NCBI GenBank assembly: GCA_008632985.1
Contig: QPGO01000023.1
Location: forward strand, 186,001-215,732
Length of the DNA stretch: 29,732 bases
Source of the DNA: Psammoneis japonica
Lineage: Eukaryota
Direction of reading: 5' to 3'
Shown piece by piece: positions 1 to 29,100 of this stretch. Every line of letters starts with the position of its first letter. Position 1 is the first letter of the stretch. The position numbers and the translations under genes were made by a program. The notes beneath the pieces were generated by a model. That model was not told the DNA's origin, searched no databases, and saw only the letters and a program-made list of their open reading frames with translations.

Positions 1-1
1 A

Positions 2-6320: not shown

Positions 6321-6659
6321 GACGTTGATCTCTAGTTGTCGACTCCAGTCGATGCATTTATAACGTAGAAAACAGCGTGGAACAGAGAAAAGGCATTCAC
6401 ACAAGAATGTGTGGTAAGAATAAAGAAGCACACGCCAGTTTGAGCAGAGACGCCCGACAAACTGCTCGATGGTGCGAAGGAGGATTGCGTGCGTGGTCGC
6501 TTTGAGGTGTCGCAGCAGTGATTCGGGCTCGTCTCACCCACTCTCTCTGGCATCAACAGCACCAACGTACTCAGGTGCGTTCAGAAAGCTCCAAGAAGTA
6601 TCGTGCCGGTAAGCTCAAAGCTGCTTATCATGGTGATCTTGGTTGTGTGTCGGTAGAAA

Positions 6660-6860
6660 AATGTGAACGTTATTTCAACGAAAATTTTTAAATTTCACAA
6701 TGCAAGCCTGTCAGCCATAGTTTCAAAGGCTGAAATAAAGTACCTACATATTTAAAATAATATATTATAGATATTTAGTAATATAATTGATTGGATTTTT
6801 CTTTTCCGTTGAGTTTACATTTATTCGTGAGTTTAGTTTTGTATAATTATTCTAACGAGG
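6660..6860. other. Short AT- and TpA-rich intergenic island upstream of the glycosyltransferase and abutting the eroded repeat block
   Basis: e.g. tttaaaataatatattatagatatttagtaatataattga; by eye the most AT-rich stretch in the window. Confidence 0.7.
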
Positions 6861-6905
6861 GTACAGCACCGTACCGTACGGCAGGCGGACAATGTACAGT
6901 AATGC

Positions 6906-8825
6906 ATGAGAACTAACTTGACAAAGATGTTTTTGGTGTGCGTGCTGCACAAAAAGAGATGCGGGGATAGATGGACATGCTGGACACGCTGGACACGCGT
7001 CACCATCTTGTCTGCAAAGTTGCCACTCTTGACAACAGCCAAGAGGGGGATCGCCAAGGATGACATGGTTTGTGGAGGCGAGCCTGCCACTCCTCCTTTT
7101 CACCACGCCGTTGCAGATGAGAGCTGCTGTGGCAAAGAAAAGCTGGTGCTGCTCTCCAGAGAACTCTGGAGGCAGTGGCAAAAGTTGCTGCACAGCTCTC
7201 TCACAGCTGCAGCTGACAAAACTGCAACAACTCGAGGACCATGAAGGGGCCACCTCTTTGCCACACCTCACATTTTCTTTTTGCTGAAAAGCTGTCTCTC
7301 CAGAGAACTCTGTGGAGGAGAGGGAAAAGTTGCTGCGTGGCTCCCACAGCTTCAGTTGACAAGAAGCAGTGGTGCAACCATGATGGGGTCACCTCTTCAC
7401 CACACCTTGCATTTTCTTTTTGCCGTCCCTCCAGACTTGTGTCATGTGGTCACCTGACCTGTGGCAACATCATCCAGGTGTGCAAAAATCTCTGAGTTTG
7501 GCAGAGTGGTGCATCATCGGACATTTTGAAAACCAGCGCATTGTTGCATTGCATCTGTGACAAGTTGCTTGTCATGCCTCTGGCATGTGGGTCAAGTTGA
7601 CCTGACAAGCAAGACCACCCCCTGCTTCCATTGCCCAGTGACAGGTCTCCTCCCTGTGCTGCACAACAGTGCAAGAAGCCTGCCGATGCCCCACCACCAC
7701 CACCACCACCACACAGCACACACACAAGAATTGTTTGAAACAACATTGCACACATTGGCAAATTGCACAAATGGGTGCATTTGCCTTTTCCCATTTGCGC
7801 ACATGCGAGTTCAGTTTTTTTTTTGCAATTTCAGCATTCAAACGAGGTGGACCACCCAGTGCAAAGGCCAGTGACATGAGACAAAAAGCAACAGCCACAA
7901 CCTCTGCAAAGAAGAAATCACACATCATGCTTGGAGCCAGCAGCCAATGAGAACTTGACAAAGATGTTTGGTCTGTGTGCAGCACAAGAGATGGATGTGG
8001 GGATGGACATGCATCACCAAGTCTTGTCTGCAAAGTTGCCTCTCTTGACAACAGCCATGAGGGGTGCTGTCAGAAAGGATGACATGGCTTTTGGAGCCTG
8101 TCACTTCTCCTTTTCTTCACACCATTGTCTGGATGAGAGCTGTGGCAAAAACAAATGCTCTCCACCCAGACAACTCTGGCTGGAGTGGCAAAAGTTGTTG
8201 TGCAGCTCTCTCACAACCAACTGCAGCTGGCAAACTGCAACAACAAGAGGACCATGAGAAAGGGGCGGGTTGCCTCTTTGTGCCACACCTTGCATTTTCC
8301 TTTTGCAAAAAAGCTGTCCCCAGAGAACTCTGGAGTGGGAAAAGTTGCTGTGCAGATCTCACAGTTTCAGTTGACAAGAAATGATGCAGCCATGATGGAG
8401 TCACCTCTTTGCCCGCCACATCTCCTGTTTTTTTTGTCATCTCCCAGCACCCCACCCCCCTGTGGGGGGAGGACAACCAATTGCTGCTGCTCATTCCACA
8501 TGCACAAGTGACCCATCTTGCTTTGCACTGAAACATGGGTGAGCCCGTTGTGTCATGTGGTCACCTGCGGCAACATCCAGGTGTGGTGCAAAAATCTGAG
8601 TTTCACAGAGTGTGTCATTGGACGTTTTGAAAACCAACACATTTTTGTTTTGCATCTGTGACAAGTTGCTTGCCATGCCTTGGGCAAGTGGGTGAAGAAG
8701 CTGACCTGACAAACAAGATCGCCCGCAATTGCCCAGTCATAACAAATCCCCCTGCAATGTGCAACAGTGCAACAAGAAGCTGGCTTTTGCATCCCCCACC
8801 CTGCTGCACAGCACTCACATGCACA
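6906..8825 (+). repeat. Degenerate tandem duplication (~1.04-kb period; copies ~6906-7730 and ~7948-8825) with an internal ~150-bp subrepeat
   Basis: Shared blocks include atgagaac(taac)ttgacaaagatgttt, tcttgtctgcaaagttgcc.ctcttgacaacagcca, gaggaccatga and gcatctgtgacaagttgcttg.catgcct. In copy 1, ctctccagagaactctg...aaaagttgctgc...cacctctt..ccacacct..cattttctttt occurs twice. Confidence 0.85.
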
Positions 8826-11800
8826 ATGGCAGCTGGTCCTTCACCTCTCCTTCTTTCCAGCCTCTGCAGCAACCAGGCAGCCCTTTTTCTCCACCGTCCA
8901 AATTTCCACCTCTGAGGCAGCAGCCACATTGTTGCCAGGCACTGCCTTGTTCCAGGGCAGCCCTGCCACAGTTGGTGCCAATGATGAAGACAATTGCTTT
9001 CTCCTGCTGAGCTCACAAGAAGCAGCAAAAGTGACAACTCTTCTCCAGCCAAATGTCCTGGAGATTTGAGGTGCTCAACCCAGCTGGTGTCTCTCAGCAT
9101 GGCCCTCCTCTTCCAAAAGGACAAGACTTGTTTCTTTTCCACCCCAGATGAGTTTCCTTTTGCCCTGCCAGCAGCATGTGATGCATCTGCACACTCTCAT
9201 GGCTTGCCTGCCAACAACTTGCAACCTGACTGTCTTGGTTGGTGTGGATGACTCTGTTGTCACTCAACTGATGAACAAAGAGCTTGCCCCCCCCCCAATT
9301 TTGCTCTGACAAGGCTGTTGCCAGCCATGGCCTGCAAGCTCTGCCACCTCTGCTGCTGTCTGTCTGAGGGTCCTTGCCTTGCTGGTTGCCATCGAATTGC
9401 CATTTTGCGTGCACAAATCATGGCATCCAGTTGGCACCCTCTGTCAAAAACCAAGCAAAACTGCCATTGACACACTTTTTGGCATTTTCCCAGCTCTCAA
9501 ACTGAAACCAGTCTGACTTTGCCACCTCATGTTGCAACAAAACAAAAAAGAACTTGCTGAACTCTATGGTTTCAGCACAGCACACAACAATCAAGCAACT
9601 TCAATTGCTGGAGCTTGCGCTTGCATTTCCAGGAAGCCAAGCACTCAACAAATTTGACAGCTTGTCACAAGCCCAACTGCCAAGAAAAATCCCAAAACTT
9701 TTGAGACCAACCCCAGGAGTCCAACAGCAAAGAAGAGCCAGAAGACAGCAGCAAGCAAGGCAGGCAGTGCTCATCAGAAGTCAAGCACAGTGTGGAAATC
9801 ACCCCTGTCATCACATTGATTTCAGCCATGCAGCCATTGCACTTGCAGAAGCACACAGTCTGGGACACTTTGTGCTTGTGTTTGCTTGGTTGAACAACTG
9901 GGAGACAAGCACAAGGAGAAATGTCATCATGAGACAGTGTGGCGCAACCCAAGAGGTGAGCAGTGTGCTGCTCACATCTCCTTGTCCTGAGCACTCCCAT
10001 GTTGTTGCCAACAGAAAGGGTTTCCCCTGTGCACTGGTGCAAAACATCAACAAAACAAAACCCAAAGTCTGCATTTAAAGTGCTGCTGTGCTTCCGCCCT
10101 GGTGCAACTCTGGCAACAAGCTGACCCACACCCCAAGCACATCATGTGATGCAGCAGGGATGTGTGACAATTGGTCAAAATTGATGCCAAAAGGCTGTGG
10201 TGCCTGCCAGAAACAGCTGACAACAACAAAAACAGGGCCAGCACATCAAACAACAAGACTTCAAAAGGAAAATGCCAAATGCTTCAATGGGGCCTTCTTC
10301 CTGGGATTGGGTCTGGCAGCAAAGGTGAGACAGGCAGTCTGGAAGAGTTTCAACATGAGAAGGAATGGGACACAAATTGAGCACCAACTCACACTGAACT
10401 GGGCTCAAACTCATGCTTCTGGGAGCAGCAACAATGGAGGATTGTTCACAGCATGGAGCAGAGAACATAAATGGACAAAGAAAAAGGGGAGTTGTTGATG
10501 CCGGAGAGGCATGGACCAAGAGCAGTTGGCAGTTTTGGCTGGTCAGTCATCCAAAATGACTTTTGAGACACACAGAAAATGTGCTGACTTGTGTTGACAC
10601 TTGTCGGCACAAGGAAGAATGGCCAATGCATGCTGAGTTGGTTTCATCTTCAAACTTCTGAAAACAGCAACAATGGAAGATCATTCACCATGTGACACAG
10701 GAAACTTAGAACAGACAATGGGGAGAAGGGGGGTCATTGACACTTGAGAGGTGTGGAGAGAGAGAGCAATTGGCAGTTTGATGCATTGTCCATCTGAAAT
10801 GACTTGCAGAACATGCAGAATTTGTGCTGAAACTTGTGCAGAAACTTTGCACATGAGAACAGAAAATGCCCAAAAGAATGCTGAGCAATCAACCAAAAGG
10901 GCTTGATGCCAATTGTTTTCCACTGCATGAGATTGCCAATGATCACAGAACAAAGGCATGTCAACAAAAGAACAGGTCTTAACAGGCAGGCAAGAGCCAT
11001 CATTTCACCATCAGAGAAACATGGCATCTGCGCCAGAGCTTGCACAGAAATGCATGCAGAGGGTGTGGCGCTGAAACCAAGGCAGAATTGTGGCACAAAA
11101 CATCAACAGTTCTCTGCACCATTTGTGTGTTCCCTTGAGAAATGGAGGAGCTTGCACATCTTGGCTCTCTTGCTCCCACTGACAGGTCAGTTCAGAGGGA
11201 GTGATTGCTGCAGTGGGGAAGATGCTGCTGTCATTCCATGCATTGTGCAGTTGCTGTGGGGGCAGGGAATTCACAAGGAAACAAACAAGCAAGACTTGCA
11301 GAGCGGAGCACAGCAACATCCATTTTTCATGCCATTGTCAATCATGGAGAAAGATCCAATGGCTGGCTCACATCCAAGTTTCAATTGCTGCTGCTGCACG
11401 CTGTGATCAACATTGTTTTCCTTTCTTTTGGTTGCTCAACAAACTCTGATGCCTCTGCCTGGGTTGGTCATCATCTCTGACACAAGCAAGGAAAGGAGAG
11501 GCAGAATTCATCCAACAGCTTTCAACCCACATGTGCTGGTTTCTTCTTTAGATCTGGCCCACAATCATCTCTGCAAGAGGGAAAATGTCAACTGTCCATG
11601 TCAATGATGGCAACTTCAGGGCAGCCTGTGGCACCACCCTCAGTTCTGTGTGGCTGGACAGCTGCTCTGCAAAAGGCACTTTGAGTGCATGCAGCTTGGA
11701 GCCCACAACAAGACTTGCAGCTCACGTGGATCCCAACCCACTGGCATCATGTTGTGCACTGAGCTCAACTTTCAGGTTGTGTGAGCAAGTTCAGAGGTCT

Positions 11801-12100
11801 TTCAAATTTTTGCGCAAAATGGCAGAACGTGGCACAACCTCACATGAGCAAAGCATGAAGTCAACAATGACCTCTGGCTCCGTCCAATGATGATGATGCA
11901 TGGTTTCATGAAGGCCAATGATCCAGATCAAAGAAGCATGGGTTCCTGGAAATGATTCCAATCATTCAGATTGGGTGGCACTCGCATGGGTTGGAGGAAG
12001 AGGCACTTGGGCTTGGGGCACTTGTGACGTGCGATTGCAGTTGTTGGAAACTCACACCGCACAATGGTTTGAGGGTTGTCCTTTGGCTGGGAGAGATGGA
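6970..12100. other. Heavily eroded repeat/TE-derived domain, depleted of both TpA and CpG; family not recognisable
   Basis: About 7 TpA found by eye in ~5 kb, few CpG, strong TG/CA excess; all ORFs are short, Cys/His/Trp/Gln-rich and nearly Tyr-free. Confidence 0.75.
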
Positions 12101-12513
12101 TTCTCATGAAATCATGGCTTGAACGGCATGTGGACAGTGAGAACGCATTTCGATTGTCCGGAAAAGATGTTGAGAGCCAACATTAGAGTGCATCGTAAAC
12201 AGCTTTCTAAAACTTCTCCGAATTCATTTTGTCCAGCCCATTTGTTTCTCTTCCACCAAACATTGACAGCTCCATCAGTGCTGGGAATGATCTTGTTTAC
12301 AACGTAGTCAACCGTTTCATTTGCCGACGCGTTGGGCTTTTCACACAGACTGTTTGGTCCCATCCACCCACCTGTGGCGTGCAAGTGACATCCTGGCACC
12401 ATTGTTTCCGTGTACATTGCTGTAAGAGCTCTTGCATCGTCATGTTGAGACGCTTCCATGAAAATGTTTTGAATCACACCGGACTTGACCAACCGTGACG
12501 CTCCGCGAAACAC

Positions 12514-12618
12514 CTGTTGGAAAATGACAGAAGCGGGGAATGGCAAGACAACAACATGAGCACACTGTGAGATGGCATGAGCAACTCGAGAAAAACAAAA
12601 CCAAGATGTAACTCGCAC
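12514..12618 (-). other. Spliceosomal intron (105 nt) in the FkbM gene
   Basis: Minus strand CAG|GTGCGAGT...TTTTCCAACAG|GTG; splicing gives DVEGFEPQVFRGA, matching the usual FkbM spacing. Confidence 0.75.
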
Positions 12619-12642
12619 CTGCGGCTCAAAGCCTTCTACATC

Positions 12643-12647
12643 CACCT
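12643..12647 (+). repeat. Left 5-bp target-site duplication CACCT
   Basis: CACCT directly before the 5' LTR; identical copy at 20535-20539. Confidence 0.95.
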
Positions 12648-12958
12648 TGACAGGGATCCCACATGACCCTTTTACATTGGAACCTCATGTTCGAAGATGG
12701 CACATACATTCAGTCGGGTTTGTGACTGAAATTCACTGATCTTTCGGAGTGTTTCAACAACCTGTCGGAATCCATCCGTTCTGACAGCCATGTCGATTCT
12801 GAGACCAGCTCAGAATCTCTCACAACTTCTAGACAAAGCATTGTCGCAAGGCACTGTTTCTAGACCAGGCTCTAGCTTGCTCTCTCCTGTCAGTGCACGG
12901 ACTTGATCACCCAAGACACTCTCAGGCGAGCACTCAGTTCTTGCCCATTTTCCTGTCA
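12648..12958 (+). repeat. 5' LTR (311 bp)
   Basis: Begins TGACAGGGATCCC, ends CTGTCA; ~93% identical to 20225-20534 by manual alignment. Confidence 0.96.
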
Positions 12959-15900
12959 TGGTTGCAACACTTCCGGTTCGGTCCAACACGACCACTTCTT
13001 TCAAGCCGAGTGCTGCTCATGCGTCTCGCAATGCTTCCTCTCCCAAGCCGTCTTCGCACGCACTTTCTTCGCATGAAGTTTTTACAGTCCACGGACGCTC
13101 CGTCGATGACGTCCCCATGGCCAACCCTCGTGACCGTTGTCACAATGTTGATGCTGGCTCCATTGTCCAGCATGCTGGCATGTACACCACACGTCGTCGT
13201 CGTTCTCGTCGCGTGACCCAGGGTGCACACCACCCTGCCACCCGTTGCATCAAGCGCACATCTGCGCCACGCTCCAAGCCGCCTTCCAAGCCCTCGCAGC
13301 AGGCCCCCAGGCGCAACAAGGTCTCCACCCGTCGCTCTCAACGTGCCGTCAACCGCACGCTCTCTAGCTCCACCGACACTGTGGATTTTGAGCGCCGTGT
13401 TCGCTCATCTGTTCGTGGCCTTCGCAACGGCAAACCCGTCACTTTGCCCAGGACCCTTCATGCTGTTTCGCAGCCGACTCGCAAGCGCACCAAGACCGCT
13501 CGCCGTCGTACCCAACGCGCTCTTCGTCGCTCTGTTGCTTCGGTCAAACGCACCCCGGCTCCTGCTCTGCCTGCACCTGACGAGCTCCGTCTCTCTCGTG
13601 TCAAAGCTGACGTCCGCGCCGCTCTCAGCGAACGTCTTGCTCAGGCCCAGGCCCGCGTTGATCGTCTCCAACTCGAGACTGAAAAGCTCTACTCCAACTT
13701 TCGCGTTGTCAAGCACTCTCGTGCTCGACTTGACACGTTGTTGGATCAAGCCACTCACGACGAATCCGAGTTTTTCAACCCCGAACACAATCTCTGTGAC
13801 CGCGCGATCCGCGACCAATTGACAGATGTCGACACATCCCTTGACATTTTACATGTCGATTTGGACACTTTGCACAACCGCATTCCGAAACCTTCCGCAC
13901 GCGACAACCCCGCGCCCTCTGCTCACTTTTCTCGGCCGCGCCCCCGAAAACGTCGAACCAAATCACGCTCGCGGAAATCACTCCGGATGACTCCCAACCA
14001 GGAACACCATGCCCTATGATCCCACCGTCTCCGCCACGGCATGTCCCGCTCCAAACCCTTTTATCATCCAGACGCTGATTTTTTTTTTCAGCCTGAAACA
14101 AGAAAGTGTCAAGACAGTGGCCCGCAGCAGCCTCCGCACCCCTCTTCGGATCACTTCATCTACGTCACCGTTGAAACCGTACACTCCGACGATGAGCACG
14201 GTGCATCAGCTCAAGGGGGTCTCAACCCATTGCTGACGACCCGCCACCCACTCCCACTGTCACTGCACCACTGGGGTCCCCTGAGGAATTCCCCCCGCTT
14301 TCATCTCCAACGGATCAAGCCACTCCTGCTCTCTCCCATGTCGACCCGTCATCAACCTCCGCGACACCGCTTTTTGATGTTGTCACTCCCATGTTGAACG
14401 AAATGGATGAAGCACTTGACAAGGCTCTTGCCTCTCCTGCTCACACTCCTGCAGTCGACTCACCTTCTCCAGCTTCGCCCGACACCTCTGACGCGTCTGA
14501 CCCATCCGTCGACCAAGACATCAACGTCCAGGTTCGTCTCGTCACCTTCGAGGCTCTCTTCGACACCCAACAAGCTCTTGCACCGTTTTTCCATCGTGAG
14601 AATGAACGTGCCGTTGAGCTTCGCGACACTGTCGATTCGGCAAAAACGTCTTTCGAGCGCCTCCTTCGTTGACACCCTGCTTGCGAAGCAAGCACTCTAG
14701 CACTTCGTCGTTTTCAGGACATGATGCGCGAAGCCGAGTCCCTTTACTTGGAACTCATGTTCCACCTTGCCCTCACCCCACGACCACACCCCGCTTGCCC
14801 GTCCGCCCACCACTCATCAGTCGACGACACTGTTTTCTCTCATGTTGCCAGCGAGCGCACCTCGGAATCCTTGTCGAATTCACTGATGAAGCATGCATCC
14901 TGTGCAAATTTGCGCACTCTGAAGCACCATCAGAATCCGCACACACGACGACAAAAATTTCATGCATTCTTGAATGACTTGCGTGGGACCTTCGCATCAT
15001 TTCCGGAATTCAATGGCACACTCAATGATTTTCCCTCTGTCCCTCTCCGCCCACTTCCAGACCATGCCGACAGCGCCCTCCATGCTCTCCTCTGGATGCA
15101 TGTGGACGCAACGCACCAATCTGACATTTCTGACCTTGGATCGCGTTCTGGCAAACTTGCTCTCGAAGAACTCCAGCTACGCTGTGCGCCCATCACTCAG
15201 GAACACAGCAACCACTGCTCAAACGACTGCCTCCAAGTCTTTCGCAACTCGGACGAGTCCGCCAGCAGCTTTATCCAACGGTTTGAACGAAAACTCCGGA
15301 GCCACAAGAACGCCGGCCTTCCCGTCAAGACTGATGCGGATGTCAGTGCCCATTTTCTCGGCCAAATGGGCAGCCATCCCCGCTGCGACGCCACCATCAA
15401 GCAATTCGAATCCGAATTTCGCACTGCTGCTCGTCTCTCCTCTGCCACCGCTCCTCGATTTAAGGACATCCGGCAAACGTTTTATGACATCGACGAGCAG
15501 CATCACAACCAACAGCATCGTGATCGGCTCTCGCATGGCTCCCGCTCCCGCTCTCACAACAACCATGCTCACCTTGCTACCGTCAAACGCGCTCCTCGGA
15601 ATGCACAACGACAGCAACAGCAGCACCGTTGCCCAAACCAACCTAACGCAACCGAGATCTGCAACCACTGTGGAAAACGCAACCACAATGCCTCCGTCTG
15701 TCGCTCTCGGCTCCGTGATCTGAAGCAGGGCACACCCAAAGATCAACCTGCTGCCAAACCTCCTCGCGACCTCAGCGAAGTCACGTGCCATCACTGCAAA
15801 AAAAAGGGGCACCTTCGTCCCAACTGTCCCGAACTCGCCAAGGACTCCAAACAGACCGCTCTCGCAGCCACTGCACCTGCCATGCACTGCCGCGCAAAGG

Positions 15901-16340
15901 CACCTCCCCCGAAGGACCAAATCATTTTCTGCGCTGCTCGAGCTGACATGGAGGATGCTCACTCTTGTTGTCCCTCCTCTTCCGACTCTATCCCAACCCT
16001 GGCACCACGCCACGTCTCCTTTGATGACGACTCATCTGCCTGCTGCTCCACGAGTGACTCGATCGCATCTTCCTCTGCTCATGGAACTGTGCCTGCCATC
16101 ACTCTCCAGGACCTCCTCGATGACACCTCTTCGATTGATGGCAACGACACTCTCTCCGCCAACTTGCACTCCACTGGTCCTCCGCCCCTTGAACATCATG
16201 ATTGCGACTCCAGCACGGAATCATCATCCACTGTGCCATCTTTGGTCCGTCGCCCATGCGAGCCGGATGACACCACGGCCTGCCCTTTTGATGAACCGCC
16301 CCCCCGGGAACTCTCCCGAGGAATCACCAGTCTGCTTTGA
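12958..16340 (+). pseudogene. gag: Copia gag region: Arg-rich/coiled-coil N-terminal part, gag core and two CCHC zinc knuckles; frameshifted
   Basis: ORF 14721-16340 contains CNHCGKRNHNASVC and CHHCKKKGHLRPNC (CX2CX4HX4C) and ESASSFIQRFE; upstream ORF 12958-14019 is basic with a heptad-like stretch. Confidence 0.8.
12959..12970 (+). promoter_or_regulatory. Putative primer-binding site TGGTTGCAACAC
   Basis: TGG (complement of tRNA CCA) immediately after the 5' LTR; cognate tRNA not identified. Confidence 0.55.
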
Positions 16341-19300
16341 CTTCCACAACGCTTTCACCACGGCATCTTACGCATCCGGGCACACTGCAATCTCTGACGA
16401 TGACATCGACTCCGTCACATCTGATCTCAGCTGTGACTCTGTCGATGCGGTCCACACCATCCCCCGTTTCTCATGCAACACCGCTGACTGTCACGTTCAA
16501 ATTGCCTGCATGGCCGACGATCCCAACCAGTGCCGACCTCACCAACCACCCCCGCGACTCCGACCTCACGGACATCAGCAGTTGGTTTGTCAACTCTGGT
16601 GCCTCTTCCCATTTCGTTCGTCATGACTCACTTGACAACAGCACCTCCTGTCACGTCCCTGTTGTTGTTGCAGACGGCACCACCGTTCATGCCACGAAAG
16701 TTGGATCCGTCACCCTCCGTTTTCAAGACGACCAAGGACATCCGGTCAACCTTGTTCTCGATCGCATCTGTTGCATCCCCGGCCTCAACCGGAACTTTTT
16801 TTCGGCACCCTCCTTCACGGCCAATGAACTCTTCAATGTCCGAATCACTGCCAATGTCACGACACTTGACTTTGGCGACGGACACACATTCAGCTTCCCG
16901 ATTCTCCATCACAGGCGCTCCTGTCACGATGTCACAGCTGCCACAGAACCGGAACCCACTTCCGACCTCCCGTTGACGGAAGCAACCGACGCCCAAGGCT
17001 CATCAAAACCAACGACACATGCAATCGACCTTGACCTTGCAGGTCGCCGTTTCGGTTGTCGCTCCTCTCAGAGCCTTTTGGCGGGCACAGTTGGCAAAGT
17101 TTGGCACGACTGCCACATTGCCCCCGGGACTGACGACTGTCTCGACAACGCGCGCATCGCCATCTCCCGAAAGCGCAACCGCGTTAAGTGTGACCCGACT
17201 GAACCACCACACACATTTTCACGTGTGTTTGTGGACACAATTCCCAACCCTCACACAGTCGCACTCACCCCAAAAACGTCTTTTCCCTGCCACCTCTTTT
17301 TGGCAACCCACAAAGGACACTGCTGCAGTGTTCATGGCCTCGAGAGCCCATCATCTGGCAACATCATCGCCGCCTTTAAATCATGGATGACCGAAGCACA
17401 ATCCCAGGGACAAATCCAAGACATAAACTTCATCCGCGCGGACTCCGCAACATGTTTTCTGTCCTCCGAATTTCTTGCCTTTGGTGAAGACAATGGAATC
17501 AAGGTCGAAGTTGCCGCTCCACGTCACCAGGAGCAGAACGGGGTCGCGGAACGCATGTGGCAAGTCGCAAGCCGGATGATTCGTTGCCTCCTTGTCAACG
17601 CACGACTCTTGGCACACTTCTACCACCATGCATTTGTCCATGCTGTCGCCATCCTGAACGTTCTCCCAGCCAAAGGCACGCGGCTCCCTGATGGCTCCCT
17701 GGCTACACCGCACTGCCATGCATTCAACAGACTTCCAAAGATTGGCAATTTTCGGGTCTTTGGATGTCCCGTCACTTTTGACAGATGCCAACCTCTCAAC
17801 CCGGCAACTCGTTGCCCGACCACCACCCAACAACAGATTCAACGTCGATCTCGTGGCATTCATGTGGGTTTCGCACCAAACCAGGCTGGCCACCTCATCT
17901 GTGTTCCTGAGGGCATCGGCACCAAGAATCTGATTGTAGCGTGTGACGCTGTCTTCGACGAACTTTTGAATCATCACTCGTGCACGACCACGTCCCCTTC
18001 TCTGGCGCACTCCTGATCCGGAACATCTCCAACGATGCCTCCGGCCTCAAGACATGCACCGAGAATCCGGTGGATGAACACACGGCACTGTTCAAGATTT
18101 CCTTGACGTTGACTCACCCCCTCATTCCTCCACTCTCACCGAAGCGCCTCCGGAATCCGATGAATCCGATTCAGCGCCACCATCCCCTGCACCCGCTACA
18201 ACCGGTCTCAGACGATCCACTCGCACCAACGCTGGCCTCCGCACTTCCGTGCGCTTCGCGGACGAGGAGCAACTCTACGCCATAACCTCCTCCACTCCCC
18301 CAGTCAATCTCCTCGAACAAACTCTCTTCGACGACTCGCTCGCCATGGAATCTGCGTGCAGCGCCTCCGTCGAATCTCCTTGGCCTGACTGCAATTGGTG
18401 CAAATGCCCGGATCCTTTGCAACAGGCCTTGGAAGCCGTCCAGGCCACCTCTTCAATTCCCATTGATGACCACTTGCCCGTTCCCCGCTCTTTTCGAGCC
18501 ATCCTCAGACAACCTCCTGCGATTCGCGATGCCTGGCTTCGTGCCGTCCGATCTGAGCTCAAGAACCTCATCGTGGACAATGAAACTTTTGCTCTTCATG
18601 AATGTCCCCGTCCAGACGATGAGATCATTGGCACCACACTTGCTCTGCGTGCCAAGGAGAAATCCGACGGCTCTCTGGAGAAACTCAAGGCTCGACACTG
18701 TGCGCGCGGCGACATGCAACGCAAATCAGCCGATGATGACAATTGGTCACCAAACGCATCCTCTCGTGCCATCAAGCTCTTCCTGGCTTTTGCAGCAAAG
18801 GCCAAACGACACGTCAAGAATGGTGATTTCGTCGGTGCTTGCCTTCAAGCCCCCGCTCGCGGCCGCCCATTTGTTCGATTCGACCCGATTCTGAAGCAAC
18901 ATTTTCCTGAATTTGCTGAACATTTTGGTGTGCCCCTCCGTCTCAAGAAAGGCATGTGCGGGACCATCCGCAGCGGTCTTTGGTGGTCAACCGAGCTCTC
19001 CGAATTTTTGCTTGCCCAAGGACACACCAATTCCAAGGCAGATCCCACCTTCTTTGCCAAGCACTTCCCCGACGGCTCACATCTCAAGCTCATTTTCTAC
19101 ACGGATGATGTCATCTACTTTGGGTCTCACGACAGAGTCGAAAGGACTTGAGAATCTCACACAATCCAGGTGCAACATCACATTCAACGGTGACGTCACC
19201 TGGTTCTTGCAGATGCGCATTCACCGATGTTCCGACGGCTCCTTCTCTCTCGACCAACATCGACATGTGCGCAATCTCCTCAAGCGGTTCCTCACTCCCA

Positions 19301-20187
19301 CCTCGCCTTGGGGCAGCCCCAGCTTTCAGGATGCCCCAGCCCCCGTTGATTGTGTGTGCTCCAAAGCGAATCAACCCAAGGACACCGCCGAATCCAAGCA
19401 AATCGCGAACAAGTGTCCTGGTCTCCATTTTCGATCCGCTGTCTGCTCCATCCTTTATCTCGCCTGCAACACTCGCGCTGACATTCTCTGGATCACCTGC
19501 AAACTTGCAAAGGCTTGCACCAACCCTGGCATGAAGGACTTTGATGCTCTCGTCCACCTTTTTGGCCATCTCCGCAAACATCAAGACCTCGCCATCAAAT
19601 TTTATTCTGATCCCACCGCGAGCCCTGTTCACGCGATTTGCGAAGCTCACAACATCAGTCATTCTGAATTTGTGGTCTTCACCGATGCCAGCTGGCAGGA
19701 TTGTCCGGACACCGCCAAGTCAACCGTTGGATTTATGGTCTACTTCAATGGGGCAATGGTGGAAGCCAATTCCACTGTCCCAACCCCTGTCGCAATGTCC
19801 ACTGCTGAATCCGAGTGGATGGGAGCCTGCACTGGCGCTGTGGCTGTCGCTCACCTGCGCATGTTGGCCTGCGACTTCACCTTCCTTGGCACTCGCCACT
19901 GCTCCATTGACTCCCAGCGACTGTCCGCCACTCCCACAATCCTCATGTTGGACAACCAAGCCGCAGCCCAAATGGCCCAAAACGACCAACAAACTCAACG
20001 AACCCGACACATTGAGCGACGCTTCCAACATGTCCGCGAAGGGCAGCGACTCGGTCATCACTTGCTTGTTTGGGTTCCCGCGGAAAGTCAATTGGCGGAC
20101 TGCCTCACCAAAACTCAATGTGCAGACAAAATTTGGGTCATGGTCGACCGTGTCCTGTGGCGCCCACCTGCACACATGCTGTCATGA
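16337..20187 (+). pseudogene. pol: Copia pol: protease, integrase, reverse transcriptase, RNase H; frameshifted and hypermutated
   Basis: PR WFVNSGASSH (catalytic D->N at 16592); INT FVDT...IRADSA...HQEQNGVAERM; RT KLKARHCARGD...DFVGACLQA...LKKGMCG...FYTDDV (19098-19109); RNaseH FTDASW...STAESE...DNQAA...RTRHIERRFQHVRE...QLADCLTK. Confidence 0.95.
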
Positions 20188-20216
20188 GCCCCTTCTCATC
20201 TTCCCTCATTCGGTTC

Positions 20217-20224
20217 AAGGGGGG
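20217..20224 (+). promoter_or_regulatory. Polypurine tract AAGGGGGG
   Basis: Directly abuts the 3' LTR. Confidence 0.85.
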
Positions 20225-20534
20225 TGACAGGGATCCCACATGACCCTTTTACATTGGAACCTCATGTTCGAAGACAGTGCATGTGTTCAGTCGGGTTTGT
20301 GACTGAAATTCACTGATCTTTCGGAGTGTTTCAACAACCTGTCGGAATCCATCCGTTCTGACAGCCATGTCGATTCTGAGACTAGCTCAGAATCTCTCAC
20401 AACTTCTAGACAAAGCATCATTGCAAGGTGCTGTTTCTAGATTAGGCTCTAGCTCACTCTCTCCTGTCAGTGCACGGACTTGATCACCCAAGACACTCTC
20501 AGGCGAGTGCCCAGTTCTTACCCATTTACTGTCA
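20225..20534 (+). repeat. 3' LTR (310 bp)
   Basis: TGACAGGGATCCC...CTGTCA, followed by CACCT. Confidence 0.96.
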
Positions 20535-20539
20535 CACCT
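20535..20539 (+). repeat. Right 5-bp target-site duplication CACCT
   Basis: Matches 12643-12647. Confidence 0.95.
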
Positions 20540-21410
20540 TGAGAACAGGAATCAACGGTCGATTCTTGAACCAGCCTCTGTCTTCCGCAAATTGATCCAG
20601 TGGAAAAACCTGAACCGTGGCGGTTGCATTCTTTGCTCGTCCCTTTCTGACAAAACTCCCAGTTCCAGGATTTTTCAAATCACCCACGCATAGATCCAAT
20701 GCATCTTCTCTTGCGCCAACACCGTCATTGTAAAAGTTGATGCTGCTCTTTCCTTGATCAGCACTCTCATGCAGCAACGACCGCTCTTCTGCGCCACTGC
20801 TCCATTCGTTAAATTTGATGGACTGGCAAATGCGAATGCCATTCACAATGTTGGGTTCAAACACATCAACATGGCACCCCAAGGATGCAGAGAGGTGAGA
20901 AAACCATCCAATGTTCCCACCAACATCCAAGACACGAGCGTTTGGATGTTTCCAAGTCTCGTCCTCTAGCAAGACTTCTCGGAACGCTTCCGTCAACACC
21001 TCCTCGTAGTGCTGTCCGTGCTTAAAAATGCAAAACCGCAGTCCATCATGTTCTTTGTTGTGCAACGACACATAGAATGGTGGATCCAATGCAGTCAATC
21101 GAAGGAAGATTTGACCATCGTTGGGGTCTTTTATGGGACAGTCATCGCGATGAATGTTGCTCAGCAAATTCTTGCAATCAAAGGGCTTGACACCAGCAAA
21201 GTGTTGCACAATAGACAGTGTCTGCTCCAGGTATCTATCATTGTAATTCTCTGGAAAAGAAACGGTTTTCCAACTTACTAGCACAGTGATGAAGGCACCC
21301 AAAGCAACAACGCAAGAAAAAGAAATTGAGTCGACGGCGGCTTCGCCGGTTGGCGATTCCTCGTTAGGAACATTTTTTGTTTGATTGAACACTGTAGCTT
21401 TTTCTTGCAT
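20535..21410 (-). pseudogene. FkbM-family SAM-dependent methyltransferase, 5' part (type II membrane anchor), disrupted by the copia element
   Basis: ATG 21410; TM VVALGAFITVLVSW; SAM motif RVLDVGGNIGWFS...VDVFEPN; ...VFPLDQF...IPVLKV running into the LTR. Confidence 0.9.
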
Positions 21411-21660
21411 TAACAAAGATTCTGATGAGAATCATTCCAATGTTTTCGAGCTATGGGTGAATTGTAAAGCTTTGGCTGCCCTGAATGGATGCGGTGAAAA
21501 TGTGCTCTAATAGAGAGTTGCTCATTGTGTTTTATTCCCGCTGCCCAATACCCGCTATCATGGAATCGCTAAAAATGGCGCGCGCCCTATTTTTTATCGC
21601 TGAAAGCCTGCGCTGACACGACGACCTGAATGATGTGATGTTGTCGTGCTCTTCTTCACG

Positions 21661-22873
21661 ATGAAGTTTTCTACAAAAAGACGACGAAGGAGGCGACTCC
21701 TACAAATTTTGTTGTTCTTCTTGACAGATTTCTTTTTCTTATATCATTTCCTTCACCCCGCAAGCTTCCGATCCGAGTCGACAATTACAGAACCAAGAAT
21801 TCCTTCGTTGTTCGATGAGCTGTTCGATGCTCCAAATAATAACACCATGTCGAAACTGAATGTGACACTTGCAACGACCATATACCACTTAGGATGGGAC
21901 AACCATGTGGGTCGGACCAATAATCATCTTACTACAATCCTACACGCTCTCGACTTGGCCTTTGATCTGCATGGTGACATTGCGAATGACGGTTCCAACT
22001 GCATTTTCGCTGTGGCTGTTTCTGGTTGGGCGTATGAGACGCTCAGAAAGTTTTTCTTTGACGAAAATACAGCAGAAGACTGGGATCTCAGGTTGGAACA
22101 AACGGTCCCCATTATTCACTTTGATCGAATCAATCAATTGCCCGGAGAAAAAAGGCTCGTCAAGCTTGGAGTCCATCCTACTACTTTTTACTACACAAGA
22201 GACCATCTCAGCAAAGCGTCAGTTGATCGCATTGAGAAACGAAGACGATTGATTCTGGGACAGCTGTTTTGCCATGTGTCCAAACGAAATCTTGAGACGG
22301 TCAACCTCCTCAAGGCACACTTGGACAAAATTACATATGCAAAGGAAGATGAGCATCTTCGGGGCAAGTACATGGTGGTTCATTCTCGATGGCTGGAGGG
22401 ACAATGTTATTGGCGTGTCGGGGACAAGCTGCCTCTGGATGAATGCGATATGAAACCAAGCTACATTAAAGATATTCTTCGTTCATTGGGCCTGCTCGGG
22501 CGCATACCAATCGTCGTCATCAGTGACATGCAGAGGCCCGAGATACTGCGAGTGCCCTCAAAAATGATGAAGAGATTGGTCGTCACGTGATTATCCCGGC
22601 TTTGACCCTCGATTCAGCACGACCAATTCGTCAATTTCGGTAGAGAGCGACATGATGATTGCCATAAAGAGTGACATTTTTGTTGGCACAAGAGCGAGTA
22701 GCATGGCAGTCATGGTTGGTCTGGTTCGGGTACTGTCAGGAGCAGACCCAAACAGCAATTATTTGTACGTCACACGGAATGATGATGAAAATTTGGAAGT
22801 TTGTGGCGAATGCATCTTTTTTTGCAATGGCAAGAGGTCAGCCATATGCGGCGCGAGGGAAGTATATCCATAG
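21661..22873 (+). CDS. Type II membrane glycosyltransferase, GDP-fucose O-fucosyltransferase-like (GT-B); one apparent frameshift near 22550-22620
   Basis: Basic tail plus TM (KRRRRRRLLQILLFFLTDFFFLYHFL), GRTNNHL, YMVVHSRWLEGQC, IVVISD, then DMMIAIKSDIFVGTRASSMA (D..I...SD.FVGT..SS motif of fucosyltransferase-type GTs). Confidence 0.7.
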
Positions 22874-23149
22874 ATGCATGTCATCCTCGCTCTCACTGTG
22901 TCGAGGCGAGATCCGCCATAGACCGTGTAGAGCTTAATTGGTCGGATTCAGTCCCACTTGAAAGACAAGAAGTGCACCCATGTTGTGTCGTATCTAACTC
23001 TATTAGTAAATGAAAACTATTTTCTCAACAAGTGGCCAGATCACAAAGGGAACTCTCGAAAGAACAAGCTGCTGAATTGGGGCGAGGTCTTGATGCTTGA
23101 TGATGCTCCGACCGTGGCACCTTATCACAAGGGTCATGATCCGGACTGA

Positions 23150-26100
23150 GCTAAGCTGGTTTTCATCATGCAGCGACATGAGAGAATGACTTATGAACAA
23201 GAGGATCTGTGTGCACCTTCACTCGATTTGTCTCACACTGCAAAGAAAGCTGCCATCTGGCTAAACTCTTCATGCTCTTCTTTGAGACAATCAAGAACAT
23301 TGAGAGTGTGTTTGCCAAAAAGAGCTCACTTCCATTCATTCTGCAGAGAGCTTGCTGCAAGTCATTCTGCAACAAAATCAGCATCATCAAACTTCCTGTT
23401 TTGCCCTGGCATTCTCTGGAGCTGGCAACAGCAGGTGGAGCAGCCCACAGAGGACTGCTTCAGACTTTGACTCCACTGGATGCTGGACCAAGAAGTGAAG
23501 ACATGGTTGGCCATTTGCAATCAGGTTTGTTTGCATGCCTTCCCACGGGGCAACAAGCTCACCATGGGGCAGCAGCGCAAATGAGAGCTGCTGTTCATCA
23601 GCAAAGATGCAGCTGCTTTGATGGAAGCCAAAGCCATTCTTCTGGCACCAATGTCCACTGTGTGGACGTCTGACTCTTGTTCATGCCCTTCTGGCATTTT
23701 GCCTGAGAGATGCTCATGCAGAATTTTGAACAATCCTTGTGTTCCACAGCAGCAACACTGAGCCAAGCCCAAAGTGCACATCTTGGGAATGCAATGACTC
23801 TTTGGAAATGCCCAACACCTTTCAAATTTGTTTTCTCCCAGCAGCTTGTTTGAGAATGTCCTGCAGCTTCATTTTGACTTGCAAGGCAGGCAACCAGAAA
23901 ATCCTGCAAGTTCAGACATTTGATGCCTGCCCAGATGACAATTGGCTTGCTCAAAATGATGCAAACAAAGCTTTTGTGCTTTGTGCTTCTTGAGGCAGCA
24001 ATTGTGCCTGCAGCACTGCTCTCAACCAAACATTTTGTGCAGTGCAGTTGGGCATGGAGCATTCCACCAGTGCCATCATCTGTGGTCAGTGGTTTTCCAG
24101 CATGCTTGCCATTTTCATGATGACTCTCGATTGATGCATGCCAAGAAGACAGAGTGGCATTTGGTGCTGTCAATGCTCAGAAAATGCAGTCAATGCCCAG
24201 CTGTCAGCAACCCCTGTGGCTCCTCAATGAACAACATGGGGAAATTGTGAGAGACTGATGCAGCTCAGTGCTTTGACAGCTGTGGCCATGCTCACATCTG
24301 CATCAAGAAAACAGCTTGACTTGGCCATGTGGATGACCTCTCATCTTTGCTGAGAGACTTTTGCAGGTGGAGAGAGCTGAGAACAACAATCACTCACAGA
24401 GCACATGACTGGCAGGTTGTTTTCATTTAGCACACCACCAACATCCATGCCAGAAATGCAGGGGCTGCCAAAATTTGGAAAAAGACAGGCAAGCGGCCCC
24501 ACTTGTGCACCAGCATTGTGGCAGCAGAGAGGAAATGAACAAAGCCTTTGTTGAGGCTGAGATGGTCAAATGTGCAACACAGGCCTTGCCAGCTGCCCAA
24601 GCAGCAGAGTGCATTGAAGCCCCTCCTTGAGTCCAAGCCATTCATTTTTCAATGCATCTGTTGGCATCACAATGTGTGCCATTGCAGCTCTTGTTTTCCA
24701 GATCAATCAAGCATCATCAGAAGGGAGAGAGATGGAGCTCACAATGAAGGGTCACAAGGGGTGGCTTTTTTCATCATGGAATTGTTGAAGCAGTTCCTTT
24801 GGTTTTGGCATGAAGCAAGCGTCAATGACTGGTGCCTTTTTTTTACAGGGTGTGTGCTTGTCAAAGTGTGGCCTCCATGTCTGGGCAAGATGATCCTCCA
24901 CAGACTTGGTCACATTTTTTCAGTGAGCACATCCACAACATTGGTTTTTTTGAAATGTGTTTGCAATGAGGCAGCTTAAAAACATGGCAGCGAACAAACT
25001 TCTGCTTCTTCACCAACAGCATGAAAGCAAGAGCCCCAAAGGACTTTTTCTTTGTCAAAAAATCTCAACACTGAAAAGACCGGGTGGCATTGCAAATTGG
25101 CTTTTGTCACTTGCCAAATGATGCCCAGTGGTGGAAGTGGGTGACAAACATCTTTTTTTTGGCATTGTCAGTTGCTGCCAAATCTGTTGAACAATGCCAA
25201 AGTCCTGAACATTGTGTTCCCAAAGCAATTCACACAATGTGCAAGTCTGCGCAAGCTGTCAGGGCTCTCACCTTGAAATGTGTTCAACAAAGATGCATCA
25301 GATGACATTTCCAATGCACCAAGCACTGCAACTTTAGAGCACCAAAACATGTGTCATGCACTCTTGCAGGTTGAAAATCGTGCATTTCAGCTGGCGCAAA
25401 ATGTGGCAGATGCAGGCAACACACTGCCCCAACTGTGCAAGGGGCAAATTCAGCTCAAGACAAGGCAGTGTTTCAGTTGTGTGAGGGGGGCAAGTCTGGC
25501 TTGCCAAGACAATTCTTGGTGGAGATTGGCTCACAAGCCCAACTTGGCATCACCCCCAACTGCCACAAACAGCAAACCCCACACAATGGCTGTGACATTC
25601 AATCCTGGCACAGCTCTGCAAATTTGGGTGCTGTGACCACTCCAATCTGATGACAAGAAGAGTGTTCTCAATGTTTCAGATGAAGACTGTCAATTTGATG
25701 GAAGACACTGCAGGCCAACAAAAGCAGCCACACCAAAGAAAAGTGCTGACTGCCACGAGGGGGGGGGGACAAGTTGCAACACCTTTTGGAACAAGTGCCA
25801 ACAGAAATGAGTGATGGCCTCATCAAAGATTTTCAATGGACAGCTTGTTGCGTTCATTTTTGACATGCCAGCAGAAACTCGGCATTGTGCTGCTTGCGCA
25901 ATTTCAAGTGGGACGATGCTGAAATGGCAGTTGCCCATCAGCTCATTCAAAAATTTGCACGATGCCAACAGCACTTTCACGATGATGATGCGGCGGCGGT
26001 GTCAGCACTTTCCCACAGCCATGCCACAGCACATCTTTCTTCATGTGACAACACAGATGATTGTTGATGGTTGATTCAGGAGAATGGTCCATTTTGCGCA

Positions 26101-29100
26101 AACCACAGGAGTTTTGTTGATGCATGAATTCAGCATCACACACGGTTGGCCTGTCAACTTGTTCTTGCGGCTGTGTTTCTGTGGATGTGTGAACAGCATG
26201 CGGTGCCTTTACACTGCTGACACTTGCAGTGGTTGGATCCTTTGCATTGCTGCCACTTTTGGTGGTTGGGAGCCTTTGCACTGTTGCAGAAGGATGGTTG
26301 GAGCATTTGTGCTGCTGCAGAAGGACCGTTGGAGTCTTTGCACTGCCTCAGAAAGGATGGTTGGAGCCTTGGTGCTGCTGCCACTTGTGATGGCTGGAGT
26401 CTTTGCATTGCTGCCACTTGTGGTGGTTGGGAGCCTTTGTGCTGCTGCAGAAGGATGGTTGGAGCCTTTGTGCCACTGCAGAAGGACCGCTGGGGCCTTT
26501 GTGCTGCTTCAGAAAGGACGGTTGGAGCTTTGGCGCCATTGCCACCTCAGGTGGTTGTGGTCTTTGTGTTGCTGCCTCTTGTGGTGGTTGGAAGCCTTTG
26601 TGCTGCTACAGATGGTTGATTGGAGCCTTCATGCTGCTGCAGAAGGACAGTTGGGGCATTTGCACTGCTTCAGAACGGACTTCAGAAAGGACGGTTGGAG
26701 CTTTGGCGCTGTTGCCACCTTTGGTGGTTGTGGTCTTTGTGTTGCTGCCTCTTGTGGTGGTTGGAAGCCTTTGCACTGCTGCAGATGGTTGGCTGGAGCA
26801 TGTGTGCTGCTGCAGAAGGACAGTTGGGGCATTTGTGCTGCTTCAGAATGGACAGTTGAGCCTTGGCGCTGTTGCCACCTTTGGTGGTTGGAGTCTTTGC
26901 ATTGCTGCCTCTTGTGGTGGTTAGAAGCCTTTGTGCTGCTGCAGATGGTTGATTGGAGCCTTCATGCTGCTGCAGAAGAAGGACAGTTGGGGCATTTGCA
27001 CTGCTTCAGAAAGGACAGATGGAGCCTTGGTGCTGTTGCCACCTTTGGTGGTTGGAGTCTTTGCATTGCTGCCTCTTGTGGTGGTTGGGAGCCTTTGCAC
27101 TGCTGCAGAATGATGGTTGGAGCCTTTGTGCTGCTGCAGAAGGACATTTAGATCTTTGCACTCCTTCAGAAAGGACGGATGGAGCCTTGCAGCACTGCCT
27201 TGCTTGTGGTGAGTGGGAGCCTTTGCGCTGCTGAAAAAGGATGGTTGCAGCCTTTGCACTGCTTCAGAAGGACAGTTGGACCATTTGCACTGCTTCAGAA
27301 AGGACGGTCAGAGACTTTGCATTGAGAATCCGAGCAATGACAGTGACACTGCCGGTGGCAACACTTGTCGTGAACCAGCTACAATCAAACAACAACCATT
27401 GAAAATGATGATGAAAATCAAATGAGTGGGTTTTGCATGCAAGCCAGAATGTTGGCACATTGTCACATGCAGAAACAATGCTGTGGTCAACATCGAATTG
27501 GAAGAAACTGCAAATCACAGCCTGTCATTGCACCACCATTGCCACACCCGGCAATTTCTCACGTGCTGGTTTGATGGATCTTCGAGATTGCCGCATGGAG
27601 CCACACAGAAATGAGCAAGCAGAATCCCACATGGTTTGCACTGGCATGCCAAAAATGAAACTCGACAAGCTGTCCATTTTGCACTGAGGTTGGCAGAGAC
27701 AAGAGTGGGCCAAAATGCCCTGCACCAGCGAGTGTTGCAGCTTGATTTTCCTTTTTCCTGGAAAACTCAACCCACTGGAGCAGCCTTCAAACCATCCACT
27801 TTTGGGCAATGCACAAAATGATGGATTTTGGAGTGCCCCCCCCCCCCCCCCCCATTGCAAAAGCACCAAGTGTGACTTTAAGTTTTCTGTGGCCAGTTGA
27901 GCAAGGTGCCAAGAAGAAAGCATGAAAATGGGGTCTCAAAGACCTCCTCCCCTTGCAAGTTTAGCCCAAACCCCAAATGAGCTGAAGGGAAAGACTGCCA
28001 TCAGCACCAGCATGGCACACTGTTCCACTGTGCAGTTTTGGCAAAGACTGGAAACAGCATGCAAACCATGGCAACCATGCATGTGGCATTTTGCTCATGA
28101 CAGTGGCAAAGGCACCATCAACCCCCAGGTGCCTCTTTGCTGATACAAAAAGTCAAGTGGTGCAAAAAGTCAAGGCCCAAGTGTCTTTTGGGCACCAACA
28201 GTGCTCTGAAAGAATCTGTTCTGCCTGTCCTGAAATTCACCAGCCCCACAGTGCAAGCTTCTGAGGCCATTGAAGCAGTGCTCTTGCAACAACAGCCAGC
28301 ACTGGCAGCTCATGATCTCAAGCCACGAAGTGGGGTTTTGACAAAAGCCCAACACTGCAAACTCTCTTCCTGCAGAAGGAACTCAAGACAGCTGAGGAGG
28401 CATTTTGGAGCAGCAGACACTGAATCTCCAAGCTCAGACCCAAATGTTGGAGACTGACAATTCACCCTGACCCATCACCAAATGAACAAATTTGCCACAT
28501 GCATGCATTGCATTTCAAATGATTCAATCATCATGGGGTTCTGCAGAGCGTTTTGTCAAGTGGAGAGTTAAAGAGCCCACAAGCAGCAAACGAAGGGGAA
28601 GCAGCAAGAGGAGGTGCAAAAAGAGCTGCAGGGGTGGGAGCAAAGAAGAGGCACACAAGACAAGGCACAGGGCATTTTAAAGAAGGAACAGGAGATGCAT
28701 CAGTGTGAAGTTTGGAGAGGAATCAGAGAGCATGGGCAGAAAGGTGATCATGAACAACGTTGCAGCTGAGAGTTTGGGTTGCCCACACACTGAGATGGTG
28801 CGCAGAGGAGCGGCAGGAGGAGCCGAAACGGTCGGCAGCAATTTGATGCCAGCCAAAGTCAGTGGAGGATAAGAGCACAGATGGTGAAGCAAGATCATGA
28901 GAGAAGGCAATGCAGGAGGGATCGGAGCCTTGGAAAGCAGCGGAGTCGAGCTGAGGAGGCTTGGGGTGGTGAGGAGCAGAGAGCAGGGGAGGAGGAGCCA
29001 AAAAGGCAGGAAGCGATGAAAGAAGAAACCAAGACCACCAAGATCATCAACAGCAAAAGGAAGGAAGAAGATCCCATCATCAATGAGAGACTGAATGGTG

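Follow-up and report, generated by a model that had tools for sequence, protein, structure and literature searches.

Probable post-integration hypermutation at TpA dinucleotides in a Ty1/copia retrotransposon and two non-coding blocks of Psammoneis japonica

Targeted A:T-to-G:C hypermutation of integrated DNA has been reported for Bigelowiella natans, where 231 of the 302 new nuclear point mutations of mutation-accumulation lines fell into two integrated viral regions (Mettrop et al., bioRxiv 10.64898/2026.01.13.699255). All but one of the mutations in these viral inserts were A>G or T>C, and every AT>GC change was located at a TpA dinucleotide. According to the preprint, the B. natans genome contains 124 TpA-poor, CpA+TpG-rich clusters; reverse transcriptase and DDE domains are over-represented among the TpA-poor coding sequences, host genes are spared, and the main target is single-copy and silent. 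Its authors favour adenine deamination and propose an ADAT2-like candidate enzyme as well as a defence role resembling repeat-induced point mutation (RIP). Besides this preprint, our full-text literature search returned no further paper on targeted A:T-to-G:C hypermutation of integrated DNA. Here, we describe a 29,732-nt stretch from Psammoneis japonica (GenBank assembly GCA_008632985.1, contig QPGO01000023.1, positions 186,001–215,732 of the forward strand), referred to as the window in the following, in which a Ty1/copia long terminal repeat (LTR) retrotransposon and two non-coding blocks are strongly depleted of TpA. A preliminary description of this stretch had proposed that A is converted to G at TpA in repeats and had stated that its author knew of no described pathway for this; with the TpA-only A/T>G/C hypermutation of the preprint, the latter statement is out of date. 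We consider it probable that the retrotransposon and the blocks underwent, at the DNA level and after integration, a hypermutation of TpA to TpG or CpA of the B. natans kind, for which adenine deamination is our best guess.

By its dinucleotide counts, the window is divided into three compositional regimes: gene-bearing DNA (1–6950 and ~21000–23150), with an observed/expected ratio of 0.5–0.8 for TpA and of ~1 for CpG, two blocks to either side of the element, and the copia element itself (12648–20534). The gene-bearing parts, which include open reading frames (ORFs) for an MscS-type channel and a PF03407 glycosyltransferase detected with Pfam, served as our baseline, at a TpA density of 0.0397 per nt. 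At this density, 312.9 TpA would be expected in the copia element, but only 48 are present (Poisson P ~7e-78; observed/expected 0.12). At the same time, CpG remains abundant (541 occurrences, ratio 0.96), as the preliminary description had noted, while CpA and TpG reach ratios of 1.32 and 1.40, respectively. The values for ApT (0.94), ApA (1.17) and TpT (1.14) are normal; the loss therefore concerns TpA specifically and is no general drift from AT to GC. For the two blocks, 198 and 226 TpA are expected, and the Poisson P over copia and blocks ranges from ~1e-74 to 1e-78. Likewise, the Rho value of TpA is 0.47–0.70 in gene-bearing DNA (1–6950 and 21000–23150) versus 0.00–0.21 in copia and blocks. 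Ordinary genes are thus spared, and the boundaries between the regimes are sharp, within tens to hundreds of bases. Our counts also reproduce the earlier ones by hand: the copia interior (12959–20224, 7266 nt) contains 35 TpA, and the initial 600 nt of the window contain 19.

The direction of change is apparent at tyrosine codons. A HMMER search with the protease-integrase ORF gave 3790 relatives at E<=0.001, of which we used the best 150; placed on the element by tblastn, they gave 193 plus-strand matches, with 1017 codons covered by at least eight homologues. Compared to the medians of these best 150 of 3790 relatives (3.05% Tyr, 1.85% Cys and 3.85% His), the protease-integrase ORF is poor in Tyr (0.2%) and rich in Cys (3.6%) and His (6.3%). 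Across pol, 18 sites are Tyr in the majority of homologues; the element has retained Tyr at 3 of them and instead encodes Cys (TGY, where Y is a pyrimidine) at 4, His (CAY) at 7, Phe at 3 and Trp at 1, whereas the residue is kept at 294 of 399 other conserved sites (Fisher p = 1.4e-6). Since both TAY>TGY and TAY>CAY occur, both positions of the TpA step, and hence both strands, were hit. These results agree with the Tyr to Cys/His replacement claimed previously, as 11 of the 18 conserved sites read TGY or CAY. The observations behind that claim are equally reproducible: there is a single Tyr in the 559-aa protease-integrase ORF and two in the 539-aa gag ORF, and the six motifs quoted at the time (KKGMCG, GACLQA, AGHLICVP, TPHCHAF, FGHLRKH and DRICCIPG) are all present in the frames of the element.

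The timing of these changes can be derived from the LTRs. At integration, the two LTRs of an element do not differ from each other, because reverse transcription derives both from the same template. In the copia element, the 5' LTR (12648–12958, plus strand, 311 nt, TGACAG...CTGTCA termini) and the 3' LTR (20225–20534, plus strand, 310 nt) have an identity of 92.6%, with 22 mismatches in 311 aligned columns. All but one of these (21) are transitions, and 18 of the 22 are found at TA/TG/CA sites. When the pyrimidine-purine sites are classified by their state in the two copies, 18 are TG/TG, 28 CA/CA, 4 TA/TA, 8 CG/CG, 7 CA/TG, 2 TA/TG, 2 CA/TA and 1 CG/TG. The seven sites with TG in one LTR and CA in the other are of particular value, as such a swap amounts to two adjacent transitions. 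They did not arise from CpG: with eight CpG conserved between the LTRs and a single one altered, double conversions at CpG are hardly to be expected. Rather, the swaps fit an ancestral TpA that was resolved independently in each LTR. Therefore, the divergence of the LTRs arose for the most part on integrated DNA and on both strands, and the same can be extended to the bulk of the TpA loss. Together with the four Tyr>Cys and seven Tyr>His replacements, these swaps bear out the proposed A>G change at TpA on both strands of selfish DNA. The LTR pair also allows TpA decay to be compared with CpG decay: there is one CpG change versus at least 11 changes at TpA sites, and TpA decay in copia is much faster than CpG decay. 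This tool, which dates changes after integration, is absent from the text of the preprint.

The TpA dinucleotides that survive in copia follow a rule. Thirty of these 48 are preceded by T and then a pyrimidine (TY), as opposed to 41 of 360 TpA in gene-bearing DNA. When survival is normalized to all TA, TG and CA sites that share the same prefix, its value relative to the baseline is 0.75 after TC and 0.83 after TT, and between 0 and 0.23 after every other prefix; in absolute terms, 30 of 211 sites survive after TY versus 18 of 1145 after the others (p = 5e-14). Accordingly, all four TpA kept in both LTRs are part of TTTA or TCTA, and conserved Tyr sites were kept in three of five cases with a TY prefix and in none of nine without it (p = 0.03). 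Selection for Tyr was considered as a cause of this survival and is ruled out, since the T of the survivors occupies codon positions 1, 2 and 3 in 9, 5 and 10 of 24 cases, respectively. A 5'-TY thus protects the following TpA in copia, a specificity that is enzyme-like, and any candidate enzyme must reproduce this rule in vitro. The mirror context (TpA followed by a purine and then A) offers no protection in copia, where 6 of 134 such sites survive versus the 30 of 211 after TY (p = 0.004). In the baseline, the two contexts are equally frequent (41 and 44 of 360), and among 23 survivors in the blocks, 11 carry the TY and 11 the mirror context, including 5 with both.

The blocks carry a second signature in addition to TpA loss. 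Block A (6969–12180) is non-coding and contains only 7 TpA between 7000 and 12000, at a CpG ratio of 0.04–0.2 and with TG and CA at about twice their expected frequency; block B (23200–29170) is likewise poor in TpA and CpG, with 16 TpA between 23200 and 28900. Overall, the blocks are even more depleted of TpA than copia, have CpG ratios of 0.04–0.37 and contain TpG and CpA at about twice expectation. CpG decay, which has barely begun in copia, is evident in the blocks, where it accompanies TpA loss. This is also visible in a tandem array of block B (26149–27320), which consists of ~6.6 units of 161 nt that are themselves built from 31–33-nt sub-repeats. Eleven dinucleotide columns of this array vary only among CA, TG and CG; since four of them still hold CG, CpG decay contributes to the CpA+TpG excess there. 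We also considered a single deaminase acting on both TA and TCG: of the 93 CpG left in the blocks, 17% are preceded by T and 39% by G, compared to 34% and 24% in gene-bearing DNA. As TCG falls short by only a factor of about two, and as CpG is depleted in every context, ordinary CpG decay fits better, and we rejected this candidate.

To what extent these regions are repeated can be estimated from a public sequencing run, X1, whose 657,387 contigs (140.7 million letters, mean length ~214 nt) contain 64% of the sampled words of 12001–22000; two further runs of the same sample, X2 and X3, cover next to none of the stretch, so that lack of cover in them is uninformative. In the de novo contigs of X1, single-copy DNA has a word depth of 53–61. 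The copia element is multi-copy (depth 280–790 versus 53), whereas the blocks are at single-copy depth, even though they contain decayed internal repeats, of 1.1 kb in block A. The preliminary description had characterized the process as repeat-targeted; in view of the single-copy blocks, and of the single-copy main target in B. natans, this part is unsupported so far. A high-copy short repeat with many internal joints is present at 10003–11336 within block A (depth 924–1195 versus 53). In copia, the mild onset of CpG decay shows in the comparison with X1: of the eight sites listed at which all X1 contigs disagree with the window, five are CG in the contigs and TG or CA in the window. None of the 50 ORFs of at least 100 aa in the blocks reached a curated Pfam cut-off (eight sub-threshold matches, E 0.006–0.04), which includes 22 ORFs in block A (three such matches, E 0.009–0.022), and for two block ORFs no relative was found in viral contigs.

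TpA loss also reaches beyond its targets. The copia element splits a host ORF on the minus strand, of which the C-terminal part (12112–12645) is partly depleted, with 9 TpA in 12001–12647, and the N-terminal part (20532–21416) is low in TpA for ~400–800 nt beside the element. To the right of the element, TpA counts per 200 nt are 2, 1, 5, 6, 8, 7 and 11, compared to a baseline of ~8. Among the differences listed, related copies of the host ORF have TA where the window has CA at 21063, 21092 and 21139. At two block edges, the TpA-poor domain extends 0.4–0.5 kb further than the CpG-poor one (to 12180 vs ~11700 and to 29176 vs ~28750). TpA loss thus spreads 0.4–0.8 kb into the DNA beside the element. 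At the left edge of block A, TpA disappears after position 6968, and ~185 nt upstream of this point there is a dense TA-rich tract (6718–6784) with 16 TpA in 67 nt, of which the one at 6766 is CA in X1.

From these observations, we propose the following course of events. A Ty1/copia retrotransposon would have inserted into a host ORF. After integration, hypermutation would have turned its TpA into TpG or CpA, that is, A:T into G:C at either position of the step, thereby removing ~85% of the copia TpA, converting Tyr codons to Cys or His and raising the G+C content. The same process near completion, in combination with ordinary CpG decay, would yield blocks A and B. As the likeliest chemistry, an enzyme would deaminate adenine in DNA to hypoxanthine at 5'-TA, in either of the strands, with silenced selfish DNA as its target; we put this forward as a best guess and hold it tentatively. 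Since TpA loss and CpG decay occur together, silenced and methylated chromatin may serve as the targeting signal.

Several points weigh against this interpretation. The sole ADAT2 shown to edit DNA prefers 5'-GAA and 5'-TCG rather than TpA (PMC10354150), and the ADAT2-like candidate of the preprint is therefore far from established. As TpA is its own reverse complement, deamination of A and modification of T are indistinguishable from the sequence. No simple single-strand rule accounts for the one-sided protection in copia, because both TG and CA outcomes occur there; an orientation imposed by transcription or replication would be no more than a guess. Recombination between elements could also make LTRs differ, though it would still require TpA to be resolved in DNA copies. 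Moreover, the polarity of the substitutions is based on protein homologues and the LTR pair, and the kinship with the B. natans process is one of signature only. Finally, X1 comes with no recorded library type and perhaps stems from the source sample of the window itself, which makes it a strong but not fully independent check against an artefact.

Among the alternatives, modification of thymine fares best, although we regard it as unlikely. Here, a TET/JBP-type dioxygenase would oxidize T at TpA of silenced DNA to 5-hydroxymethyluracil or a derivative, and mispairing or misrepair would then lead to T>C on either strand. Given the palindromic nature of TpA, every count reported above would fit equally well. 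Thymine modification is tied to repeats in some protists. On the other hand, nothing in the window favours a modified T, and the X1 contigs, at high depth, read the sites in question cleanly. From the literature, the lack of a TpA preference in the DNA-active ADAT2 (PMC10354150) speaks for a process at thymine, while the authors of the preprint favour deamination of A, with their ADAT2-like candidate (10.64898/2026.01.13.699255).

It is improbable that TpA poverty predates integration, either through ADAR/ADAT editing of the transcript that was fixed by reverse transcription or through long-term avoidance of UpA in the RNA of the family. The preference of ADAR-type enzymes for a 5' U, as discussed in the preprint (10.64898/2026.01.13.699255), and the asymmetry of the survivors with respect to the sense strand would be in line with such an origin, and the depletion common to both LTRs cannot be dated. 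However, editing of sense RNA yields only A>G and hence Tyr>Cys, yet there are seven Tyr>His versus four Tyr>Cys replacements. Furthermore, LTRs made from one template differ at 22 sites, including the seven TG/CA swaps, the non-coding blocks and the flank in the host gene are depleted as well, and the homologues have a normal Tyr content.

Even less probable is an artefact of sequencing or assembly, in which long reads miscalled a base that is modified at heterochromatic TpA and CpG, and polishing failed to correct the error in repeats. Its appeal lies in the confinement of TpA loss to repeat-like DNA, in the frameshifts of pol, which could be indel errors, and in the unrecorded library type of X1. 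Yet X1 contigs as deep and accurate as these cannot come from noisy reads: a single 3417-nt contig (depth 53) reproduces 6001–8938 of block A and its flank with 9 differences, and a 2768-nt contig (depth 61.5) reproduces 23080–25848 of block B with 5, so that the TpA-free blocks are matched at 99.7–99.8%. The copia junctions 11660–12258, 12231–12676 and 20729–21903 are reproduced without any difference. Other data with TA at the TG and CA sites had been named as a sign of miscalls, but the de novo contigs of X1 have the same TpA-free sequence as the window. In addition, polishing would have reached the blocks, because they are single-copy by depth, and the same signature arose de novo in the Illumina-sequenced lines of the preprint (10.64898/2026.01.13.699255). 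Among the differences listed between X1 and the window are adjacent double changes, from TG to CA at 7976–7977 and from CA to TG at 11483–11484 and 12261–12262; as hints of present-day mutation, they are suggestive only. Over the copies of the copia family in X1, the differences add up to 259 C>T, 183 G>A, 177 T>C and 162 A>G, with 20–55 for each type of transversion.

A generic AT-to-GC bias, such as GC-biased gene conversion in a recombining repeat region, would account for the G+C content of copia (55% vs ~48% in the flanks), but is hardly credible given that only TpA is lost while ApT, ApA and TpT are normal, that the blocks have an ordinary G+C content of 44–53%, and that gene conversion is not expected to follow a TY-prefix rule.

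The target of the proposed hypermutation is a Ty1/copia LTR retrotransposon, as is evident from its LTR ends, the 5-bp target-site duplication CACCT (12643–12647, second copy at 20535–20539, read directly), a polypurine tract directly before the 3' LTR (20216–20224) and the position of the integrase upstream of the RVT_2 reverse transcriptase. On the plus strand, tblastn of the homologues places a gag-like region at 14340–15911 (frame 0, weak zf-CCHC_5 match), where the 539-aa gag ORF (14721–16340) encodes 2 Tyr, 22 Cys and 39 His. It is followed by the protease-integrase region (16295–18061, frame 2, Pfam Pol_BBD and SH3_retrovirus), with the 559-aa ORF at 16337–18016, and by the reverse transcriptase/RNase H region (18062–20184, RVT_2 match with E 1.6e-11), which lies in frame 0 and then, after a break at ~19140, in frame 1. 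The Pfam scores are weak (44.7 bits for RVT_2), as expected for a heavily mutated, frameshifted copy. With pol split over three frames in the tblastn alignments, and with single-base indels near the frame breaks in some other copies of the public run, such as an extra G at 19141 (three X1 contigs, depth 110 of 550), this copy is dead. In the protein collections, the best relatives found with HMMER are 51–61% identical, a word-based search returned two matches at 40%, and no copy of the same family was found.

Some further features of the locus deserve mention. The sense strand of copia contains 34.5% C and 20.6% G, a skew that far exceeds what TpA conversion alone could give. Between the 5' LTR and gag, a 353-aa ORF (12958–14019) matches no Pfam family and is not covered by homologues; it may mean nothing, because without TpA only TGA stops a frame and long empty ORFs are expected. 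The split host ORF has a weak Methyltransf_23 match below the cut-off. Contigs of X1 and X2 join 12642 straight to 20535 and thus represent related copies without the element, with an identity of ~85%. The contigs that match the copia junctions exactly (11660–12676 and 20729–21903) have a word depth of 30–35, compared to 53–61 for nearby single-copy DNA, and the insertion may be confined to one of two haplotypes or to a fraction of the cells. Neither an Rfam family nor a tRNA was found in the window, and the clusters returned by an atlas search with the MscS-like ORF were mainly bacterial, along with a green-algal one.

How does this locus relate to known systems of hypermutation? Fungal RIP resembles it in several respects, as it introduces transitions only, affects selfish or duplicated DNA, leaks a few hundred bases into the flanks and destroys coding capacity (PMC2621366, PMC3318451). 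It does so, however, by converting C:G to T:A, mostly at CpA, and thereby creates TpA and lowers the G+C content, whereas TpA is destroyed and the G+C content raised in the window; with a TpA ratio of 0.12 and its elevated G+C content (55% vs ~48%), copia does not match a RIP product, and we rejected RIP as its cause. Deamination of 5-methylcytosine likewise shares some features, in that it turns a self-complementary pyrimidine-purine step into TpG or CpA on either strand and leaves TG-versus-CA swaps between copies. Unlike the TpA loss in copia, it acts on CpG, and copia, at a CpG ratio of 0.96, shows it only mildly. The preliminary description was thus right to set aside both systems, as TpA is destroyed and CpG intact in copia.

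Deaminases of the ADAR/ADAT type convert adenine into a base that is read as G, and ADAT2 provides an example of a tRNA deaminase that acts on DNA (PMC10354150). ADARs differ in their RNA substrate, and their marks on a retroelement would be confined to its sense strand, while amphioxus ADAT2 (BjADAT2) deaminates DNA in the contexts 5'-GAA for adenine and 5'-TCG for cytosine, and not at TpA (PMC10354150). APOBEC proteins, in turn, restrict LTR retrotransposons by deamination, and the integrated element is left hypermutated (PMC4866542). However, they convert C to U on minus-strand cDNA during reverse transcription, which appears as G>A in the sense strand, are not directed at TpA, and would leave the same changes in both LTRs.

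This leaves the B. natans system, which is alike in its TpA depletion, its clustered enrichment of CpA+TpG and its spared host genes (10.64898/2026.01.13.699255); the likeness that we claim is one of signature and need not imply identity of the systems. Judged by the thresholds of the preprint, five consecutive 1-kb windows of block A and six of block B qualify as clusters. The copia element passes the TpA threshold in all windows, but is not a cluster, because its CpA+TpG Rho of 1.22–1.46 is below the cut-off of 1.52. Caution is thus advisable with the CpA+TpG criterion, as CpG decay confounds it and targets with intact CpG, such as copia, escape it. In the blocks, CpG is lost too and inflates CpA+TpG, a matter on which the text of the preprint is silent, with no mention of CpG, nor of LTR, copia or retrotransposon. 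If the proposed chemistry is true, a natural DNA adenine deaminase acting at TpA would be of interest for base editing. On a broader view, and as a possibility that we would not yet call probable, TpA erasure could be a general, RIP-like defence that also disables LTR retrotransposons and shapes heterochromatic blocks, with a 5'-TY rule, an orientation set by the element, a spread of 0.4–0.8 kb and a speed well above that of 5-methylcytosine decay, maybe in another lineage than the one first reported. While the targets in B. natans are viral inserts, the one described here is an LTR retrotransposon. New with respect to the preprint are therefore this target, the dating by an LTR pair, the 5'-TY protection with its strand asymmetry, the spread into the flanks and the blocks that lack both TpA and CpG, although the supplements of the preprint may hold data on context. 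The kind of system is already described in the preprint; the window adds a new class of target and a richer natural record.

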